A DNA stretch of 64,000 nucleotides from assembly GCA_030390025.1 (NCBI GenBank), contig CM059429.1, positions 22,196,001 to 22,260,000 of the forward strand. Reading direction: 5' to 3'. This document shows, one piece after another, positions 867 to 25,545 of the stretch (position 1 is its first letter; every line of letters begins with the position of its first letter). Source of the DNA: Squalus acanthias (taxonomy: Eukaryota). A program made the translations under genes and the position numbers. The notes beneath the pieces are model-generated. The model searched no databases. It had not been told where the DNA came from and saw nothing but the letters and a program-made list of their open reading frames with translations.

Positions 867-1520
867 TTTGTGAATGGTAGGTCATGTCTGACTAATGTAG
901 TTGTGCTTTTTGAGGCGATCACTGACAAGGTAGACAGGGGAGTCTTTATAGATGTTGTTTATATGGACTTTCAGAAGGCAATTGATAAAGTTCCACACAA
1001 GAGATTATTAGCAAAAATGAGAGCGCATGGAATTGGGAGTAACCTTAGGATATGGGTTGAAAATTGGTTGGGAGGTAGGAGACAGAGTGCACAGATTTAC
1101 AAAAATGCTATCTGGGCTAAAAGGGTTAAATTATGAGGACAAGTTGCATAAAGTTGTGTTGTATTCCCTTGAATTTAAAAGGTTGAGGGGTGATCTGATT
1201 AAAGTGTTTAAAATTATAAAGGGATTCGATAGGGTAGATACAGAGAAGCTATTTCCTCTGGTGGGGGAGTCCAGAACGAGGGGGGGCACAATCTTGAAGT
1301 TAGAGCTGGGCCATTCAGAAGTGAAATCAGGAAGCATTTTTTCACCCAAAGCATAATAGAAATATGGAACTTTCATCCCCAAAGGACTGTGGAGGCTGTG
1401 AATTGAAATTTTCAAGACTGAGATTGCTAGATTTCTGTTAGGTAAGGGTATCAAGGAACATGGATCAAAGGTGGGAAAATGGAGTTGAGGTGCAGATCAG
1501 CCCTGATCAAATTAAATGGT
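867..1520 (+). mobile_element. CR1 LINE, 5'-truncated and internally deleted; left part
   Basis: RT motifs GRSCLTN..DVVYMDFQKAIDKVPHKRLL, then the C-terminal LYSLEFKRLRGDLIKVFKIIKGFDRVD..LFPLVGESRTRG, then the CR1 3' UTR up to AAATTAAATGGT. Confidence 0.93.
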
Positions 1521-2571
1521 CAAAAGTGAGAAGTCGCACAACACCAGGTTATAGTCCAACAGTTGTATTTGAAATCACAAGCTTTCGGAGCTGCTGACGA
1601 AGGAGCAGCAGAAGCAGCAGAGTGGTGGTCTCTGTGAGCAGGAAGAGGAGAAGCAGAAGGAGACCAGGCAGCAGACCACCACCAACAACCAACTACAACT
1701 GAGGTGCCTGGAGAGGGAGGACAGGAGAGGAGAAGGATAAGAAGGGAAGGCCAAGGCCATTAACAACAGAGGAGAGGCCTTTCCACACTGCCTCCTCAAT
1801 TGGCCTCCATTTTAGGAGAGGGAGAGAGGGGAGAAAAACATCACAAACATCCATCATCTGTTTGGAAGGAGGGAGGAAGGAAAGAATATCAGCTACAGGT
1901 GGGTGTGATTCTGGGGCACTCTCCCAGAGACTTTGTTTTGTAGGTGGGGGGAGGAAAGAAGAAAAGAAGAAGGCCGGAACATCTAAGGGGTGTGTGTGTG
2001 TGTGGCTTTTGTAAAAACTAGGCCGCACACACCATATTAAACACCCCTTTCCCATTGCCTGACCTGGGACAGCTGGAGCTGCCTAGGTGAAGTTCCCCAA
2101 TTAATTATATCCAATTGGGCATCGTTAAGACCTGGTGCAGGACTGAGCCTGGGCATCTCCAGCTATCCCAGGTGAAGACATCTTCTCCCCCCACCAGAAG
2201 ACCACCACCAAAGACTTTTTTACATCGGAGAGTGCACCCCCCTGCCAACACCCACCCACCCACCATCCTGAGTGGCGACCCTGCCCTTGCGGCTTCCCTC
2301 CTTCCCACCCCCCTCTCTCTCTCTCTCTCTCTTTGTCTCTTGTCTCTCTCTGCCTCTCTCTCTCTAAGAGGCACCTCATCTATTTTTAATTAAGTACCCA
2401 TTGAGCAGAGGGGAGAAGGCCCCTCTCCCAATTCAATCAACTAAAGGGAGAGGTGTGCCTTCAATTTAAGAGCTCCCTCTGCTCAGGGGAAAACCAAAAA
2501 AAAAACCGAGGCCATTAACACCTTCAGGCCTGTGACTTGGGGTGAGTGTAGCCCTTAAAGAACCCTCCATT

Positions 2572-4722
2572 ATGGCGAGTACATCTTCGTCGGTGGCGGG
2601 GGCAGCGAGGACGTACGCGAGCGTGGCAGCCGCGGCCACGGCCGCAGCCACGAGTCCTCCTGTTACCCCGTCACCTTTTACCCTCCTTACGAGGAAGAAT
2701 GGGGTCAAGAGCTACACTCACCCCAACATGACTATAGAGGCGTGCGTTAAAGCCATGGCTGGGGTTGTCGGCCCTTCAGCCATCGTCGCCGCCTCTAAAA
2801 TGTACGGCAAGGCTGTGTTCTTCCTGGGGTCGGAGCGGGCGGTGTCCCTGGCCATCGAGAAGGGGCTCACCGTGGGCGGGACCTTCCTGCCGGTGGACCC
2901 CCTTGAGGCCACCGCGCAAAGGATTGTGGTCTCCAACGTCCCGCCCTTTGTTCCGGGTGAGCTCCTCCTCCCCCACCTACGTCAACTGGGGGAGGTGAGG
3001 TCGGGGATCACACCCATCCCGCTCGGCTTCCGGGAAGCCAGCCTTCGGCACGTCTTCTCCTTCCGGCGCCAGCTTTTCGTCCGGCTGGCGCGGGAGGAGG
3101 ACGCGGACGGCGCGTTCACGGTGCTCCACGGGGGGACCGCCCACCGCGTCTTCTGGACCTCGGACGGCGCGCGGTGCTACGCCTGTAAGGAGGTGGGGCA
3201 CGTCCGCAAAAACTGCCCCGCCTCCAAGGCCGCCACGACACCTGGCGCGGCCGGGGTTGGCGCCGCCGCCCCCCCTCCCCCTGATACTGTCCGCGCGTCG
3301 ACGGCGACGGATGCGCGGTCGAAATCGGAGGCCAACGCCACCACGGCCTCCGGCGGGGAGGAGGGAGAGCGTCCGGGGGGAAGGAAGGCGCGTAGGAAAA
3401 ATAAACACATAAGGGCGGATCCCCTCGCGGAGGAAACATCTGAATTGGCCGAACTCACGCCCGAGTATATCGCGGAGTTGGTCGGGACGCATGAGACTGG
3501 GGGGGTCCTCGTGCCCGGGCCCGTGACCGCAACCGCCGAGGCGGCTAAATCAAGACCTGCGGCCGGGCTCGGGCCCGAGGGGCCCAAGAAACCCAGTCGT
3601 CGGAAGGGGGCAGAGAGGGAGGCCCCAGCAGACATGGAGGCCTCCCCCTCTCCGGGCCCCAACTTGTTAAAAAGAAAGCTCCGCCCCCAGCAGGAGGACT
3701 GCGAGGAGGAAGGTCCCTCCGCAAAAGGGGGGCAGTCGCCCGCCGCGGGTGCTGCGCCCCACCCCACCACCGTCATCGTCGCGCGCGATCGGCAGGGGTC
3801 GTCTGTCCCTCGGGAGGGTGAGACAGACGAGTCTGTCCGACCTGTGCCTCCCGGGGATGGGGAAGAGACCCTGCCCGTGGGGGGGGGCGCGGAACAACCC
3901 GCGGAGGGAAATGTAGTACCGGAACCGTTGCTCCTCGCCGGGTCGGGCGTCCTGGGGACTGGGGCGGGCGAGGCCAAAGAGGCTGAAGCCGAGCCCGCCT
4001 TTTATAACCCAGACATCTCCCAGGGACTGCTCGACCTGGTGGAGGAGTGTAGCAATCCCCAGCCTGCTGGGTCGGAGGTTGGTGGCGGGGAGACGGAAAG
4101 CCCCCTGACTCCGTCTCTGTTGTTGGCGCCGGACGTGCTGGAGGAATTTGGGATTATTTTCTCCCCGGTTTCTCCGGTCGCCCCGGCGCCTGAGGCGGGG
4201 GGGGGCCCCGAACCGCCGCCGCCGCCTCCCGGCCCGGCGCCCCTGAAGGAGCCCAGGGTGGACTCCTCTGCCACCGATCCTGGGGGTGGGATCGTGACGG
4301 AGGCGGGGCCGGCCGGTGCGGCCGAGCCGTTCGCTGCACCCCGTGCGACGGACGGGTCGGCCGTCGGTGACGACCTCCCGGAGGAGGACGGGGACTCGGT
4401 GTTGGGCAACGAGGACGATTTGGAGTCCATCGGCAGCGAGGTGATGGACGCCCTCGTGCCCTTCACTGACTCTCCCCTCATCCCCGTAGGGGAACTCCGG
4501 GATTTTATGGCCGTGAGCCAGGGTCGTCACAAGAAGATCCGGCTGGCCCTCGACAAGTGGTCGGAGCTGACGCTGCTCGTCGTGTCCGTCCGCGCCGCCG
4601 TTAAAATCATGGGCGCGGACAAGGACGTTGACCGGCTCGAGCTGCGTCGGCTCAAGACGTTCCACACTGGGCTGCTGAGGGAGTGGCGGTCGTCAGTGAC
4701 CGCCCTCCCTCCCCTCCGTTAG
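2572..4722 (+). CDS. Tx1 ORF1 gag-like nucleic-acid-binding protein, about 716 aa from the first ATG
   Basis: YASVAA motif, VG..IVAASKMYGKAVFFL, RIVVSNVPPF, LRHVFSFRRQ, zinc knuckle CYACKEVGHVRKNC, a long Pro/Glu/Ala-rich linker and a C-terminal helical region. The ATG at 2572 lies within track ORF 2542-4722. Confidence 0.93.
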   Translation: MASTSSSVAGAARTYASVAAAATAAATSPPVTPSPFTLLTRKNGVKSYTHPNMTIEACVKAMAGVVGPSAIVAASKMYGKAVFFLGSERAVSLAIEKGLTVGGTFLPVDPLEATAQRIVVSNVPPFVPGELLLPHLRQLGEVRSGITPIPLGFREASLRHVFSFRRQLFVRLAREEDADGAFTVLHGGTAHRVFWTSDGARCYACKEVGHVRKNCPASKAATTPGAAGVGAAAPPPPDTVRASTATDARSKSEANATTASGGEEGERPGGRKARRKNKHIRADPLAEETSELAELTPEYIAELVGTHETGGVLVPGPVTATAEAAKSRPAAGLGPEGPKKPSRRKGAEREAPADMEASPSPGPNLLKRKLRPQQEDCEEEGPSAKGGQSPAAGAAPHPTTVIVARDRQGSSVPREGETDESVRPVPPGDGEETLPVGGGAEQPAEGNVVPEPLLLAGSGVLGTGAGEAKEAEAEPAFYNPDISQGLLDLVEECSNPQPAGSEVGGGETESPLTPSLLLAPDVLEEFGIIFSPVSPVAPAPEAGGGPEPPPPPPGPAPLKEPRVDSSATDPGGGIVTEAGPAGAAEPFAAPRATDGSAVGDDLPEEDGDSVLGNEDDLESIGSEVMDALVPFTDSPLIPVGELRDFMAVSQGRHKKIRLALDKWSELTLLVVSVRAAVKIMGADKDVDRLELRRLKTFHTGLLREWRSSVTALPPLR

Positions 4723-4747
4723 GTAGAGGTTGCACTATGCTTCTGAG

Positions 4748-7700
4748 ATGAAGATAACCATAGCCAGCCTCAACATCAACGGCAGCAGGGAGGCGCGCCG
4801 TAGATTCAATAACTTCTCGGTCCTTCGGGACGGGAAATATGCGGTGTGCTTCCTGCAAGAAACCCACACCGTTCCGGGAGACGAGGCCACGTGGCTCCTG
4901 GAGTGGCAAGGAGGGGTCAGCATGAGTCACCTCTCCAACAATTCCTGCGGGGTGGCTGTCTTGCTGGCCCCGCATTTTCAGCCGGAGATCTTGAGGGTCA
5001 AGGAGCACGTGCCGGGCCGCTTGCTCCAGGTCACTGTTCGCCTGGGAGGCGTGCCGCTCCATTTAGTGAACGTGTACGCCCCCCGGACCGGTGCGCAGCA
5101 AGTGCGCTTCTTCGGAGAAGTGTCCGCTCTTCTGGGCTCCATCGACGTGGGCGAGTGCGTCATCCTCGGGGGGGATTTCAATTGTACCCTCGAGGCGCGG
5201 GACCGGTCGGGTCCCCCGCGAAGCCCGGCGGCGATGGAGAAGTTGCGGGACCTGGTCGGGTCCTTCGACTTGGTGGACGTCTGGCGAAATCTCCATCCCG
5301 ACTCCAGCGCCTTCACGAGCGTGAGGTCTGGAGGAGGAAGGTCCAGAATCGACCGCCTTTACATTTCCCGGGCGTACGTCTCCTGCGTTCCGGCGGCTTC
5401 CATGCGGCCGGTGCCGTGCACGGACCACCACCTGGTGTGGGCGGAGCTCGCTCCGCTGCGCGCGCGGGGGGGGTCCGCGTACTGGCATTTTAACAACCTG
5501 CTGCTGGAGGACGCGCGGTTCCGGGATTCGTTTCGCCGGTTCTGGGCCGACTGGAGAAGGAAGCGGGGAGGCTTCCCCTCCTTGAGGCTATGGTGGGACG
5601 TGGGCAAGGCTCACGTCCGCGTCTTCTGTCAGGAGTACGCGAAGGGGTCGACCAAGAGGCGGGAGGCCCGGGTCGGGCGATTGGAGAAAGAAGTGCTCGA
5701 CCTGGAGTCCCGTCTCGGTCAAGTCGTCGAGGACCCGGCCCTGCGGAAGGTGTACGAAGAGAAGAAGGGCGCGCTGAAGGACCTGCAGCTGGTCGGGTCC
5801 CGAGGCGCGTACGTGAGGTCGCGGATCCAGTTCCTGCGGGACCTGGACCGCGGCTCCCCCTTCTTCTACTCGCTGGAAAAAAGACGGGGGGTCCGTAAGC
5901 AGCTCTTGGGGCTGCTGGCCGACGACGGATCTCTGGTCTCGGATCCGGAGGGCATCAGCGCGGAGGCCCGGGCCTATTACGGGGCTCTGTTCTCTTCGGA
6001 TCCGTCCAGCGAGGATGCGCGCAGAGTTTTGTGGGAGGACCTGCCGAAGGTCGGCCCGGAGGGCGCCGAGAATTTAGAAGCTCCGCTAAGCCTGGCGGAG
6101 CTGACCGGCGCCCTGCGCCAGCTCTCGAGGGGCAAGTCCCCGGGGCTGGACGGGCTGACCGTGGAGTTCCACAGGGCGTTCTGGGACGTCTTGGGGGACG
6201 ACTACGCGCGGGTCCTGGGGGAAAGTCTGGCGACCGGGGAGATGCCCCTCTCTTGGCGCAGGGCGGTCATCGTCCTGCTGCCCAAGAAGGGCGATCTCCG
6301 CCTACTTAAGAACTGGCGCCCGGTCTCCCTCCTCAGCACGGACTACAAAATTTTCGCCAGGGCTATGTCTGCTCGCCTTGGCACCGTGCTGGCCCGCATG
6401 ATCCACCCCGACCAGTCCTACACGGTCCCGGGCCGGAGTATCCACGATAACATCCATCTGGTCCGGGACCTGGTCCACCATTCCCAGAGGGCTGGTCTGT
6501 CGGTCGCCTTCCTTTCCCTGGATCAGGAGAAGGCGTTCGACAGGGTGGATCACGAGTATCTTTTCGGGACTCTGCGCGCATTCGGGTTCGGGACGCATTT
6601 CGTCGCCCGGATCCGACTTCTGTACGCCGCCGCGGAGTGTCTCATTAAAGTTAACGGGTCTTTGACGGCGCCCCTTCGCTTCGGGAGGGGGGTGCGTCAG
6701 GGATGCCCCATGTCCGGTCAGTTATACGCCGTTTGCGTGGAGCCTTTCCTGCGCCTCTTGCGGAAGAGGTTGACGGGACTGGCTCTGCAAGGGCCGGGCG
6801 TGGAGGTGGTCCTCTCGGCTTACGCCGATGACGTGCTCCTCGCGGTCACGGATCCCGTCGACTTGCGGAGGATGCGAGAATGCCAGCAGATTTACTCGGA
6901 CGCATCCTCCGCCAAGATCAACTGGGAGAAATGTTCTGGACTCCTGGTGGGCCCATGGCAGGTGGACTCCCTGCCGGAGGAGTTCGGGCCTTTCGCCTGG
7001 AGCACCACGCACCTCCTCTACCTGGGAGTCTACCTCAGCCCGGCCGAGGACGCCTGGCCGGCGAACTGGCAAGAGCTGGAGGCCAAAGTCACCGCTCGCC
7101 TAGGACGCTGGACAGGACTGCTCCGAGTGTTGTCCTACAGGGGTCGAGCGCTGGTCATAAACCAGCTGGTGGCCGCCATGTTGTGGTACCGGTTGATCAC
7201 TTTGATCCCTCCCCCTGCGTTTGTCGCCAAGATGCAGAAGAAGCTCGTCGACTTCTTCTGGGACAAAAGGAAGCACTGGGTCTCTGCCGCGGTTTTGAGT
7301 CTCCCGCTTAGGGAGGGCGGTCAGGCGCTGGTGTGCCTTCGCACCCAGGCGGCGACTTTCCGTCTTCAGACGCTGCAGAGATACCTGTACGTGGAGAATC
7401 CTCCTAGGTGGCGTGCGCTGGCGACGTATTTCTTCCGCCAGCTGCACGGCCTCAATTACGACACGCAGCTCCTGTTTGTGAGAGTGGGTGGCACGCGTGC
7501 CAGCCTGCGGGAGCTGCCTGTCTTCTACCAGGAACTGCTATGGGTTTGGAACAGCGTCGCCTCCGAGCGCAGTTCTCCCCCGTCAGGAGCGGCGGCCGTC
7601 CTTCGGGAGCCGCTGTTCAGGAATCCGCACCTCCACGACCGCGGGTTCGGCTGGCTGGCGGAGGGCAGGGCTGTGCCCGGTAAGGTGACCAGAGTCGGGG

Positions 7701-8647
7701 ACCTGCTCGATGGCGGAGGAGCGGGCTGGATGGCGCCGGAGGAGTTGGCGAGGCGCATGTCTTGGGTCAACGTCCGGCTCGCGGTCAAAGCCATCGAGTC
7801 GCTAAAAGTGGCACTGGGCCCCGTCTCCACTAGGTGTGTCGAGGAGGCTCAAGCACGTGGGGCGATCCCGTCCGAACTGACCCCCGTTCGGACGGAATTC
7901 CTTATCGGCGCCCGGCCCCGAATCCTCCCTCGGGAGCCGCCGCCTCACCACTTGAGCCTTCTCGGAGAAATGCCCTCCGTGCCCTTTCAATCCGCACGGA
8001 GGCGTTTCCTGTACGGGCTGCTCCTGCACACTCTCCACTTTGCCATCTTCGTCTGCCGTCCGGACACGCCTTGGCGTACCATCCTGCCGTCCGGCGGAGG
8101 CGAAGGTCCCCATTGGAAGGCTCTCTACGCGGGAGTCTTCCCTTGTTCTATTGGGGACTTGGCCTGGAGGGTGTTGCACGGAGCAGTCCCGTGCAATAGG
8201 ATTTTAAGTAGGTTTACGGACTCCCAGGCTGCTTGTCATTTTTGCGGCCTGGAGGAGTCCGTTTATCACATTTATGTTGAATGTGAGAGGTTGCAGCCCC
8301 TCTTTCATTATTTGAAGGGGCTGCTCCTCAATTTCTGGTTGCACTTCAGCCCCACGCTCCTGATCTACGGTCACCCGGTGCGGAGGGGACAGGGTAGGTC
8401 GGAGGACTTCCTCGTAGGACTGCTCCTGGGCCTGGCCAAGAAAGCCATTAATTGGTCCAGGCAGCGGGCGGTCGAGGGGGTCGTTCGGCCCGATTGCCTG
8501 CCTCTCTTCCGCGGCCATGTTCGCGCCCGGGTGGCCCTGGAGATGGAGCACGCGGTGTCCGCCGGCACGCTTGAGTTTTTCCGCGACCGGTGGGCGCCGC
8601 GGGGACTGGAGTGCATCGTCACCCCGGACTTTCAAATTTTAATTTGA
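4748..8647 (+). CDS. Tx1 ORF2 endonuclease/reverse transcriptase, about 1299 aa
   Basis: APE motifs SLNING, FLQETH, NVYAP, GGDFN, SRIDRLY, TDH. RT motifs KSPGLDG, NWRPVSLL..DYKI, SLDQEKAFDRVDH, GVRQGCPMS and YADD (6821-6832). C-terminal CHFCGLEESVYHIYVEC. No stops or frameshifts. Confidence 0.97.
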   Translation: MKITIASLNINGSREARRRFNNFSVLRDGKYAVCFLQETHTVPGDEATWLLEWQGGVSMSHLSNNSCGVAVLLAPHFQPEILRVKEHVPGRLLQVTVRLGGVPLHLVNVYAPRTGAQQVRFFGEVSALLGSIDVGECVILGGDFNCTLEARDRSGPPRSPAAMEKLRDLVGSFDLVDVWRNLHPDSSAFTSVRSGGGRSRIDRLYISRAYVSCVPAASMRPVPCTDHHLVWAELAPLRARGGSAYWHFNNLLLEDARFRDSFRRFWADWRRKRGGFPSLRLWWDVGKAHVRVFCQEYAKGSTKRREARVGRLEKEVLDLESRLGQVVEDPALRKVYEEKKGALKDLQLVGSRGAYVRSRIQFLRDLDRGSPFFYSLEKRRGVRKQLLGLLADDGSLVSDPEGISAEARAYYGALFSSDPSSEDARRVLWEDLPKVGPEGAENLEAPLSLAELTGALRQLSRGKSPGLDGLTVEFHRAFWDVLGDDYARVLGESLATGEMPLSWRRAVIVLLPKKGDLRLLKNWRPVSLLSTDYKIFARAMSARLGTVLARMIHPDQSYTVPGRSIHDNIHLVRDLVHHSQRAGLSVAFLSLDQEKAFDRVDHEYLFGTLRAFGFGTHFVARIRLLYAAAECLIKVNGSLTAPLRFGRGVRQGCPMSGQLYAVCVEPFLRLLRKRLTGLALQGPGVEVVLSAYADDVLLAVTDPVDLRRMRECQQIYSDASSAKINWEKCSGLLVGPWQVDSLPEEFGPFAWSTTHLLYLGVYLSPAEDAWPANWQELEAKVTARLGRWTGLLRVLSYRGRALVINQLVAAMLWYRLITLIPPPAFVAKMQKKLVDFFWDKRKHWVSAAVLSLPLREGGQALVCLRTQAATFRLQTLQRYLYVENPPRWRALATYFFRQLHGLNYDTQLLFVRVGGTRASLRELPVFYQELLWVWNSVASERSSPPSGAAAVLREPLFRNPHLHDRGFGWLAEGRAVPGKVTRVGDLLDGGGAGWMAPEELARRMSWVNVRLAVKAIESLKVALGPVSTRCVEEAQARGAIPSELTPVRTEFLIGARPRILPREPPPHHLSLLGEMPSVPFQSARRRFLYGLLLHTLHFAIFVCRPDTPWRTILPSGGGEGPHWKALYAGVFPCSIGDLAWRVLHGAVPCNRILSRFTDSQAACHFCGLEESVYHIYVECERLQPLFHYLKGLLLNFWLHFSPTLLIYGHPVRRGQGRSEDFLVGLLLGLAKKAINWSRQRAVEGVVRPDCLPLFRGHVRARVALEMEHAVSAGTLEFFRDRWAPRGLECIVTPDFQILI

Positions 8648-8715
8648 TTTATTAAGTTTCATTTCAAGTTTTAATTGATTTACAGTAAATTTGCGTTCTG
8701 TCAAACCAAAAAGAT

Positions 8716-8825
8716 CAACACCAGGTTATAGTCCAACAGTTTTATTTGAAATCACAAGCTTTCGGAGCAGCCGCTCCGAAAGCTTGTGATTTCAAATAAA
8801 ACTGTTGGACTATAACCTGGTGTTG
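8716..8825. repeat. Perfect inverted repeat, 53-bp arms with a 4-nt loop
   Basis: 8716-8768 is the exact reverse complement of 8773-8825; the loop is AGCC. Confidence 0.97.
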
Positions 8826-8889
8826 TGCGACTTCTCACTTTTGTCCACCCCAGTCCAACACCGGCATCTCCGCATCAAAATTAAATGGT

Positions 8890-8934
8890 GGAACTGGCTT
8901 GAGGGCCTGAATGGCCTCCTCCTGTTCCTATGAT
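8890..8934 (+). mobile_element. CR1 LINE 3' terminus; right part of the 867-1520 copy
   Basis: GGAACTGGCTTGAGGGCCTGAATGGCCTCCTCCTGTTCCTATG is the CR1 end also seen at 20550-20605, 28300-28360 and 46200-46260. It resumes right after the second AAATTAAATGGT. Confidence 0.9.
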
Positions 8935-9100
8935 GAAATGCAGCCTCCTCCTGCACTGCTCCTCAGAAATATCCAAGAGAGTAACTCTTCACCGATAGAC
9001 CCTGTGGGCTGGGTAAGGCCTTCTACGAGCAGACCTCCGCACCTACTGTGATCTAACAGGCCCACCTGCTGCTTGTTCTGGTTCTTCCTCTTCCTCCAAC
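8935..9100 (-). pseudogene. Harbinger transposase pseudogene, N-terminal fragment
   Basis: Minus strand reads EEEEPEQAAGGPVRSQ*VRRSARRRPYPAHRVYR*RVTLLDISEEQCRRRLHF. It joins in frame to SRQTVTDLC at 866 when 867-8934 is removed. Confidence 0.82.
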
Positions 9101-10656: not shown

Positions 10657-11019
10657 CCAGTGCAGTGCTGAGGGAGTGCTGCACTGTTGGAGGTGCCGTC
10701 TTTCAGATGAGACGTTAAACCAAGGCCCCGTCTGTTCTCTCAGGTGGGACGTAAAAGATCCCGTGGCACTATTTCTAAGAGGAGCGAGGGAGTTATCCCC
10801 GGTATCCTGGCCAATATTTATCTCTCAATCGACATCACTTAAAAAAAATGATCTAGTCATTATTACATGGCTGTTTGTGGGAGCTTGCTGTGCGCAAATT
10901 GGCTGCAGCTTTTCCTACAAAACAACAGTGACTACACTTCGAAAATACTTCATTGGCTGTAAAGCACTTTGTGACATCCTGAGGTCGTGAAAGGCGCTAT
11001 ATAAATGCAAGTTTTTTTT
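10657..11019 (+). mobile_element. DeuSINE-family SINE (SacSINE1-like), 5'-truncated
   Basis: Deu-domain core GAGGTGCCGTCTTTCxGATGAGACGTTAAACC..AAAGATCCCxTGGCACT and tail GGCGCTATATAAATGCAAG. Homologous to 13350-13806 and 25105-25545. Confidence 0.85.
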
Positions 11020-13349: not shown

Positions 13350-13806
13350 AAAAAGACTTACATTTATATAGCGCCTTTCACGACCACCGGACGTCTCAAA
13401 GCGCTTTACAGCCAATGAAGTATTTTTTGAAGTGTAGTCACTGTTGTAATGTGGGAAACGCAGCAGCCAATTTGCGCACCGCAAGCTCCCACAAACAGCA
13501 ATGTGATAATGACCAGATAATCTGTTTTTGTTATGTTGGTTGAGGGATAAATATTGGCCAGGACACCGGGGATAACTCCCCTACTCTTCTTCGAAATAGT
13601 GTCGTGGGATCTTTTACATCCACCTGGGAAAGCAGACGGGGCCTCGGTTTAACGTCTCATCCGAAAGACGGCACCTCCGACAATGCAGCACTCCCTCAGC
13701 ACTGCACTGGAGTGTCAGCCTAGCTTTATGTGCTCAAGTCCCTGGAGTGGGATTTTAAACCCACAACCTTCTGACTCAGAGGCAAGTGTGCTACCAACTG
13801 ACACAG
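13350..13806 (-). mobile_element. DeuSINE-family tRNA-derived SINE, near full length
   Basis: Reverse complement of the 25105-25545 copy, including the tRNA-like head, Deu core and L2-like tail. Confidence 0.88.
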
Positions 13807-25104: not shown

Positions 25105-25545
25105 TCAGCTGTGGCTCAGTGGGTAGCACACAAGCCTCTGAGTCAGAAGGTTGTGGGTTCAAGTCCCACTCCAGAGACTTGAGCACATAAAGCTAGGCTG
25201 ACACTCCAGTGCAGTGCTGAGGGAGTGCTGCACTGTCGGAGGTGCCGTCTTTCGGATGAGACGTTAAACCGAGGCCCTGTCTGCGCTCTCAGGTGGACGT
25301 AAAAGATCCCATGGCACTATTTCGAAGAAGAGCAGGGGAGTTATCCTCGGTGTCCTGGCCAATATTTCTCCCTCAACCAACAAAACCAAAACAGATGCTG
25401 TTTGTGGGAGCTTGTGTGCGCAAATTGGCTGCCGCGTTTCCCACATTACAACAGTGACTACACTCCAAAAGTACTTCATTGGCTGTAAAGCGCTTTGAGA
25501 CGTCCGGTGGTCGTGAAAGGCCCTATATAAATGCGAGTCTTTTTT
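25105..25545 (+). mobile_element. DeuSINE-family tRNA-derived SINE, full length
   Basis: A-box TGGCTCAGTGGG, B-box GGTTCAAGTCC, Deu core, and tail CTATATAAATGCGAGTCTTTTTT. Confidence 0.9.

Follow-up and report, generated by a model that had tools for sequence, protein, structure and literature searches.

A site-specific Tx1 retrotransposon family in the tails of Penelope-like elements of Squalus acanthias, and how its copies may be joined to the chromosome

How the 5' end of a new long interspersed nuclear element (LINE) cDNA is joined to the chromosome is an open question, and it is posed in unusual form by one locus in a 64,000-nt stretch of the Squalus acanthias genome (assembly GCA_030390025.1, contig CM059429.1, positions 22,196,001 to 22,260,000; hereafter the window). 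There a LINE of the Tx1 clade lies within the remains of a Penelope-like retroelement, and the sequence directly before it (1539 to 1594) is repeated directly after it (8716 to 8771), with 96% identity over 56 nt and a single G/T mismatch in the first 53. The original prediction took this repeat for a target-site duplication (TSD) of 53 to 71 bp and proposed that either the Tx1 family targets the Penelope terminal repeat, possibly with nicks placed by a cruciform, or the Penelope machinery moved the whole composite as cargo. We consider it probable that the Tx1-clade LINE in the window is intact and belongs to a young family whose insertions fall at one fixed base of a Penelope-like tail, and that it starts with an inherited copy of that target, likely allowing its cDNA to pair with the cut chromosome end. 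Comparison of the family's copies establishes, at the level of sequence, a fixed site, a single orientation, a TSD of about 15 bp, a head that is inherited, and mosaic arrays of tandem copies. About a thousand young copies, with three head classes and many arrays, amount to a natural experiment on LINE cDNA 5' joining.

Target specificity and the Penelope-like host

A 33-mer from the end of the second open reading frame (ORF2) of the Tx1 element occurred 1,134 times in the 3.71-Gb genome, corresponding to about 1,100 copies, and the exact 3' junction 1,040 times; because the patterns differ, the ratio of the two counts is only approximate. Among the first 100 copies along the genome, 86 have the exact 22-nt junction, antisense to the Penelope tail. 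When the 30 best-scoring 3' ends were inspected, the window's own among them, 29 ran into the same target base and the remaining one sat in the family's own leader. The 35-mer spanning the insertion point has 65,792 exact occurrences in the genome, which by simple arithmetic gives a random insertion a chance of about 1e-5 of landing on the target base. In the consulted part of PMC4494074, a Tx1 family is called target-specific when more than 20% of its flanks fall in one repeat class; the corresponding fractions here were 86 of 100 and 29 of 30. Targeting of the multicopy Penelope terminal repeat, as predicted, is therefore strongly supported: the tabulated flanks place the 3' junctions overwhelmingly at one target base, and chance insertion, with unrelated flanks at other copies, is contradicted by the junction that 86 of the 100 copies share. 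The cruciform fared less well. A hairpin arm lay within about 400 nt of 17 of 36 occupied hosts and of 14 of 30 unselected hosts, without enrichment; a cruciform is therefore not needed to place the nicks, and such a requirement was rejected.

The target itself belongs to a Penelope-like element. At two loci (L086 and L161) the same tail lies behind an 808-amino-acid ORF with a reverse transcriptase (RT) match; at L161 this ORF matched RVT_1 (E-value 1.6e-7) and ended about 280 nt before the tail. No C-terminal GIY-YIG endonuclease with a CCHH motif was found in the host ORF by Pfam or PDB searches; read by eye, its translation contains what we take to be a GIY-YIG-like pair with two cysteines between. 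The minimal hammerhead core pattern was present in 17 of 30 unselected hosts, and we regard these hits near the Penelope tail as putative hammerheads. The features of the host class are an inverted truncated copy, a one-sided tail, and the core pattern near the tail; the first two of these are described as typical of Penelope-like elements in the consulted part of PMC8557442.

In the window the host amounts to 180 bp (1521 to 1538 plus 8716 to 8877). The outer end of its inverted tail arm, upstream of the Tx1 insertion point, occupies 1521 to 1538 on the minus strand (the reverse complement of 8826 to 8843); the remainder of this arm, which is the target downstream of the nick, lies at 8716 to 8768, also on the minus strand, and the sense 3' tail follows on the plus strand at 8764 to 8877. 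The palindrome that had been predicted is real, with a perfect 53-bp inverted repeat (8716 to 8768, 100% complementary to 8773 to 8825), but its description as a hammerhead palindrome does not hold: no hammerhead core pattern was found anywhere in the window, because this host copy is cut inside the hammerhead. The identical 12-bp TSDs of the Penelope-like insertion (1509 to 1520 and 8878 to 8889) bound the composite, as had been claimed.

The window's right-hand hairpin centre was found at 22 genomic loci, of which 21 have no adjacent Tx1, and empty hosts of the window form carry outer duplications of their own (L239, for example). As this centre is a normal host form, no deletion is needed to explain it. 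The proposed 71-bp match, with a 15-nt segment lost on the right, was rejected; the left-hand junction also leads into the Tx1 leader in 27 of 30 cases (see below). Because the window locus is the only one of the 22 with an adjacent Tx1, the composite was not copied as a unit.

Several unusual insertions were also noted. A second look-alike site, on the sense strand of the same Penelope tail, is found at the 3' junctions of two arrays (L097, positions 1608 to 1640, and L222/L223). At L003 (positions 1815 to 1830) a copy has inserted in the family's own leader, near window position 1890, and its junction has three additional bases resembling the target; the 3' end of the Tx1 RNA may, on this evidence, include a few bases of target. 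On C2 near 164.56 Mb (L157) and 164.78 Mb, and on C4 near 43.98 Mb, Tx1 3' ends face each other 140 to 870 bp apart; in these cases a Tx1 appears to sit in each arm of a single Penelope hairpin. Sister Tx1 subfamilies at L104, L105, and L139 have a near-identical ORF2 end and a different 3' end, and their sites are non-Penelope with a common TACAC core and 12-13-bp duplications; L105 is a three-copy array with a single common cut. These subfamilies provide a natural pair for mapping the determinants of target choice.

The ordinary duplication and the inherited head

As judged from sequence comparisons among copies, the long repeat is a TSD of about 15 bp plus an inherited, element-borne head, rather than a long TSD. 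Truncated copies are mostly flanked by a duplication of 13 to 16 bp. In contigs from a separate sequencing run (X1), position 1553 is joined to internal Tx1 positions, 7763 and 8702. The true Tx1-made TSD of the window copy, with its first base ambiguous, accordingly covers about 15 bp at 1539 to 1553 on the plus strand. The same X1 contigs, together with some 1,000 recurrences of the junctions in the genome, indicate that the window junctions are not an assembly artefact, a possibility that had been raised. At the first junction base the copies vary between C and G while the hosts have C, and base 8716 may be supplied by the Tx1 element itself.

The head (1539 to 1609, plus strand) consists of captured target, namely antisense Penelope tail and a short sense piece of the hammerhead core. 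Three classes, recurring across chromosomes, were distinguished among 31 full-length copies: 16 heads were long, nine were of 46 nt, and six were short. The long-head junction occurs 531 times in the genome, and 27 of 30 examined occurrences lead into the Tx1 leader; the other three are empty Penelope hairpins, the likely source of capture. In 18 of 24 long-headed copies the head departs from the sequence of its own host within 46 nt, and must therefore be borne by the element. The hosts at L128 and L148 have only 18 and 24 nt of target, and the heads there have 46-53 nt. Four short-head copies have in common a G at +12 that is absent from their hosts, so the Tx1 RNA likely extends at least to +12. 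The left side reproduces private host variants at +20/+21 in two cases, L141 and L142, and the point of hand-over between host and head would therefore vary. The predicted duplication thus survives as a repeat (1539 to 1594 and 8716 to 8771), and is given up in its 71-bp version and as a TSD.

Downstream of the head, and likewise on the plus strand, the window copy has a 5' untranslated leader (1610 to 2571) common to full-length copies, an ORF1 of 716 amino acids (2572 to 4722) with one zinc knuckle (zf-CCHC, E-value 5e-4, just under the curated cut-off), an ORF2 of 1299 amino acids (4748 to 8647), and a short 3' untranslated end without poly(A) (8648 to 8715). ORF2 encodes an apurinic endonuclease (APE)-type endonuclease (Exo_endo_phos, E-value 1.7e-11), an RT (RVT_1, 8e-38), and a C-terminal zinc motif (zf-RVT, 4e-5, below the curated cut-off). 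Both ORFs are open, and the claim of an intact element is upheld. Mean pairwise ORF2 divergence among the 31 full-length copies was 0.6%. ORF2 was open in 17 of 30 copies and both ORFs in at least three of the 30, plus the window copy; the latter figure is a lower bound, the ORF1 check having missed the start in 11 of the 30. Judged by its sequence divergence, the family is young. At loci taken without a length pre-screen and chosen as not visibly in arrays, 18 of 27 copies were full length, so the inherited target copy is accompanied by a high full-length share, and the intact copies make the model testable in cells.

Tandem arrays and the joining of new copies

A same-strand neighbour within 7.4 kb was found for 55 of 100 copies. 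A search for the junction followed by exactly 15 bp of duplication gave 31 matches, of which 30 were retrieved; 24 of these then run into Tx1 sequence, at 16 sites. At each of these sites a truncated copy lies behind another copy, and at 11 of the 16 all visible copies have exactly the same 5' cut; the cut varies from site to site, and within a site the 3' alleles mostly differ. Three further arrays, of six, four, and three truncated copies, have the same pattern, with private target alleles repeated. In two full-length arrays, four of six consecutive pairs were no more than one base apart in the region 2400-3300, as compared to 0.2% of 465 unrelated pairs, and the array pairs differed by four to nine bases in 6700-8640 (because a copy containing an N gap was excluded, one of the six pairs is not adjacent). 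The breakpoints between shared and unshared blocks lie at varying depths. Since copies of an array have a common 5' cut yet mostly different 3' ends, the pattern suggests that new cDNA pairs with the neighbouring copy.

The steps envisaged are modelled on the target-primed reverse transcription of Tx1L and R1: a nick by the ORF2 endonuclease in the Penelope sense strand, at the junction, would prime cDNA synthesis; about 15 nt farther downstream a second nick would leave a 3' overhang; and cDNA that reaches the head would anneal to this overhang, giving a precise full-length insert and an apparent repeat of 46 to 70 bp. Copies would stack because every insertion leaves a fresh target. Less firmly, when a copy already stands beside the nick, the new cDNA would pair with it, and the new RNA would supply the 3' part of the new copy while the neighbour supplied its 5' part and junction. 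In the window, the 180-bp Penelope hairpin would have come first, with its 12-bp duplication, and the Tx1 element later. We lean, by a little, towards the fuller account in which an APE-type LINE solves 5' attachment with a carried copy of its downstream target and often finishes by cDNA pairing with a neighbour, the arrays gaining, by retrotransposition, chimeric units in which the 5' junction is constant and the 3' ends are new. If true, arrays would have a route of origin other than double insertion or unequal exchange, and the family would offer a natural blueprint for placing 7 kb precisely at a specific site; the arrays would be a record of apparent cDNA pairing with a neighbour, and their pattern deserves a test.

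The main rival accepts the targeting and the head as described here, and has the shared-cut arrays grow by unequal exchange between short repeats, their 3' ends being replaced later by gene conversion or aborted insertions. Copies 1 to 3 of array C2_150M and copies 2 and 5 of C2_154M are near-identical throughout, as this would predict; expansion of transposable element (TE) dimers in this way is described in the consulted part of PMC5932611, and differences would cluster at the 3' end in any case, since no other part of the family varies as much. However, the two-copy arrays L209, L210, L218, and L219 already differ at the 3' end, the first duplication would need to pass through only 15 bp of homology, and the breakpoint depths vary as new cDNA of variable length would have them do. 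We therefore regard unequal exchange as a serious but rather unlikely origin of the shared-cut arrays.

The readings from which this study set out were weighed against the same loci. A locally made TSD as long as the whole repeat, with the second nick 50-70 bp away and possibly set by a cruciform, would explain the match of left and right over 53 nt in the window, the two loci at which host-private +20/+21 variants were copied, and the six of 24 long-headed copies that match their host through 46 nt; it is very improbable given the other 18, the two hosts that lack the sequence (L128 and L148), the short duplications of truncated copies, and hairpins that are not enriched at occupied hosts. 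Transport of the Tx1-Penelope composite by Penelope machinery finds some encouragement in the single 12-bp duplication that bounds the composite and in the ability of Penelope-like elements to move host genes in trans (consulted part of PMC8557442). It can scarcely be credited when the window's host form bears Tx1 at one of 22 loci, subfamily, length, and hairpin centre vary among occupied hosts, and truncated Tx1 copies stand at the same base with a duplication of their own; among the loci inspected, there were no identical host-plus-Tx1 units with different outer duplications.

Fixed targeting with an inherited head, and arrays grown by pairing with a neighbour, must also be held against observations that fit them poorly. 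Twelve of the 14 copies in the first 100 that lack the exact junction were classified: six are spread over three non-Penelope sites, three come from sister subfamilies whose targets are different, one is at the second look-alike site in the Penelope tail, and two have target variants. Truncated copies at L103, L115, L132, L137, L140, L143, L144, and L146 have a short duplication or none. The window's G/T mismatch is absent from the other heads inspected, and may be a private mutation or an error. At the 16 array sites, three have a longer upstream copy, one is mixed, and one is off by one base; L112 also appears to depart from the shared-cut pattern. G/A-type 3' ends were counted in 24 of 77 host-adjacent cases as against 8 of 72 (p=0.005, in a non-independent sample), and a greater age of G-type 3' ends was not significant (p=0.13); the arrays may have grown in either direction. 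In the contigs of three other sequencing runs (X1, X7, and X17) no transcript start, strand, or expression was evident, nor the same target in another species.

Two arrangements within arrays are recorded here in their own right. At L176-L178 (C21) the repeated unit is made up of a head followed by a 5' fragment of 1.9 kb that stops within ORF1, some 11 nt of the upstream Penelope sequence, a second head, and a full copy. A lone truncated copy, L233 (C22), matches one inside the array L213/L214 (C5) in its 5' cut (window 8537), 3' allele, and TSD remnant, which suggests that a short derivative moved in trans.

Relation to known systems and surroundings of the window copy

ORF2 is 50% identical over its full 1299 amino acids to the 149-kDa protein of Xenopus Tx1, and the closest protein matches, among those listed, are from cartilaginous fish. 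In an RT tree of 25 rows chosen among 120 listed matches, rooted at the midpoint and built without labelled Keno, Kibi, or Koshi rows, the element falls in a supported group of eight rows (99/100) with Xenopus Tx1L and proteins from sturgeon, turtle, and stingray. The RT phylogeny that the original prediction had called for thus agrees with placement in the Tx1 clade, in terms of protein rows rather than Repbase or Dfam families. The target differs from U2, from microsatellites, and from any Rfam family, an Rfam scan of the window having returned no matches.

Published Tx1 families target piggyBac, Mariner, Harbinger, and long terminal repeat (LTR) elements, according to the consulted part of PMC4494074, on which the following statements on Tx1 families rest. 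Tx1L of Xenopus laevis likewise targets another transposon, in its case the non-autonomous piggyBac element Tx1D, whereas the target of the Squalus family is the tail of a Penelope-like retroelement; the inherited 5' copy of the downstream target is stated of the Squalus family only, the comparison with Tx1L covering the protein and the target. Crocodilian Tx1-Mar, Tx1-8_Crp, Tx1-4_AMi, and Tx1-9_AMi prefer Mariner, LTR, or Harbinger elements, and no Penelope target is given among the crocodilian families there. Some of these bear captured 5' heads, and one SINEU-2B extension resembles its Mariner target; unlike the Squalus family, with its 0.6% ORF2 divergence, they are old (85-87% to consensus) and their heads are derived from U1/U2. 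A Penelope tail adds a retroelement tail to the transposons used by Tx1 families as safe landing sites, a modest extension of a known habit.

Among other LINEs, R1 of Drosophila 28S rDNA is also APE-type and site-specific, makes a 14-bp duplication, and forms arrays whose copies are separated by the duplication; for the melanogaster-type RNA, annealing of carried target sequence to the cut end has been proposed. R1 has upstream target and a 9-bp deletion, in contrast to the downstream target and apparent long duplication of the Squalus family, and the consulted part of the source (PMC2718515, for all of these points) contains no shared 5' truncation with new 3' ends. Double-insertion TE tandems of Drosophila include tandem LINEs in which the junction retains the target duplication, but six of 10 jockey dimers have clearly distinct 5' truncations (consulted part of PMC5932611), as compared to the exact common cut at 11 of 16 sites here. 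The host resembles Penelope/Poseidon elements, for which the consulted parts of PMC8557442, PMC11167929, and PMC6155905 describe an inverted truncated copy, a one-sided tail of 30-40 bp, one RT ORF, and, in many copies, a minimal hammerhead core; the window host differs from them in being a 180-bp remnant without the core. The site-specific Tx1 family is real, and its Penelope target was not found in print: literature searches, which did not reach Repbase, Dfam, most subscription papers, or the target supplements of PMC4494074, listed no Tx1 family with a Penelope target, and, with most subscription papers again beyond reach, no shared-cut tandem arrays.

The element was also sought in other sequencing runs. 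Eighteen runs (X1-X18), with seven organism labels and two runs unlabelled, contained 0.73-0.81 of the element's words; it was seen in contigs of X1, X7, and X17 (run type guessed), and was absent from the raw-read run X21. In X17 the element is about 99% identical and the Penelope tail is thinly covered. Its presence across runs may reflect close relatives, horizontal transfer, or contamination.

Around the composite, the Penelope hairpin seems by eye to split an old LINE 3' fragment (845 to 1508 and 8890 to 8935), presumably of a CR1-like family, and run contigs link about 1502-1520 with about 8900 of the window. Farther to the right, an interspersed repeat of about 360 bp is present in two inverted copies (10657 to 11018 and 13350 to 13710), 84-92% alike, with more near 25200 and 42300; it is likely a common short interspersed nuclear element (SINE).

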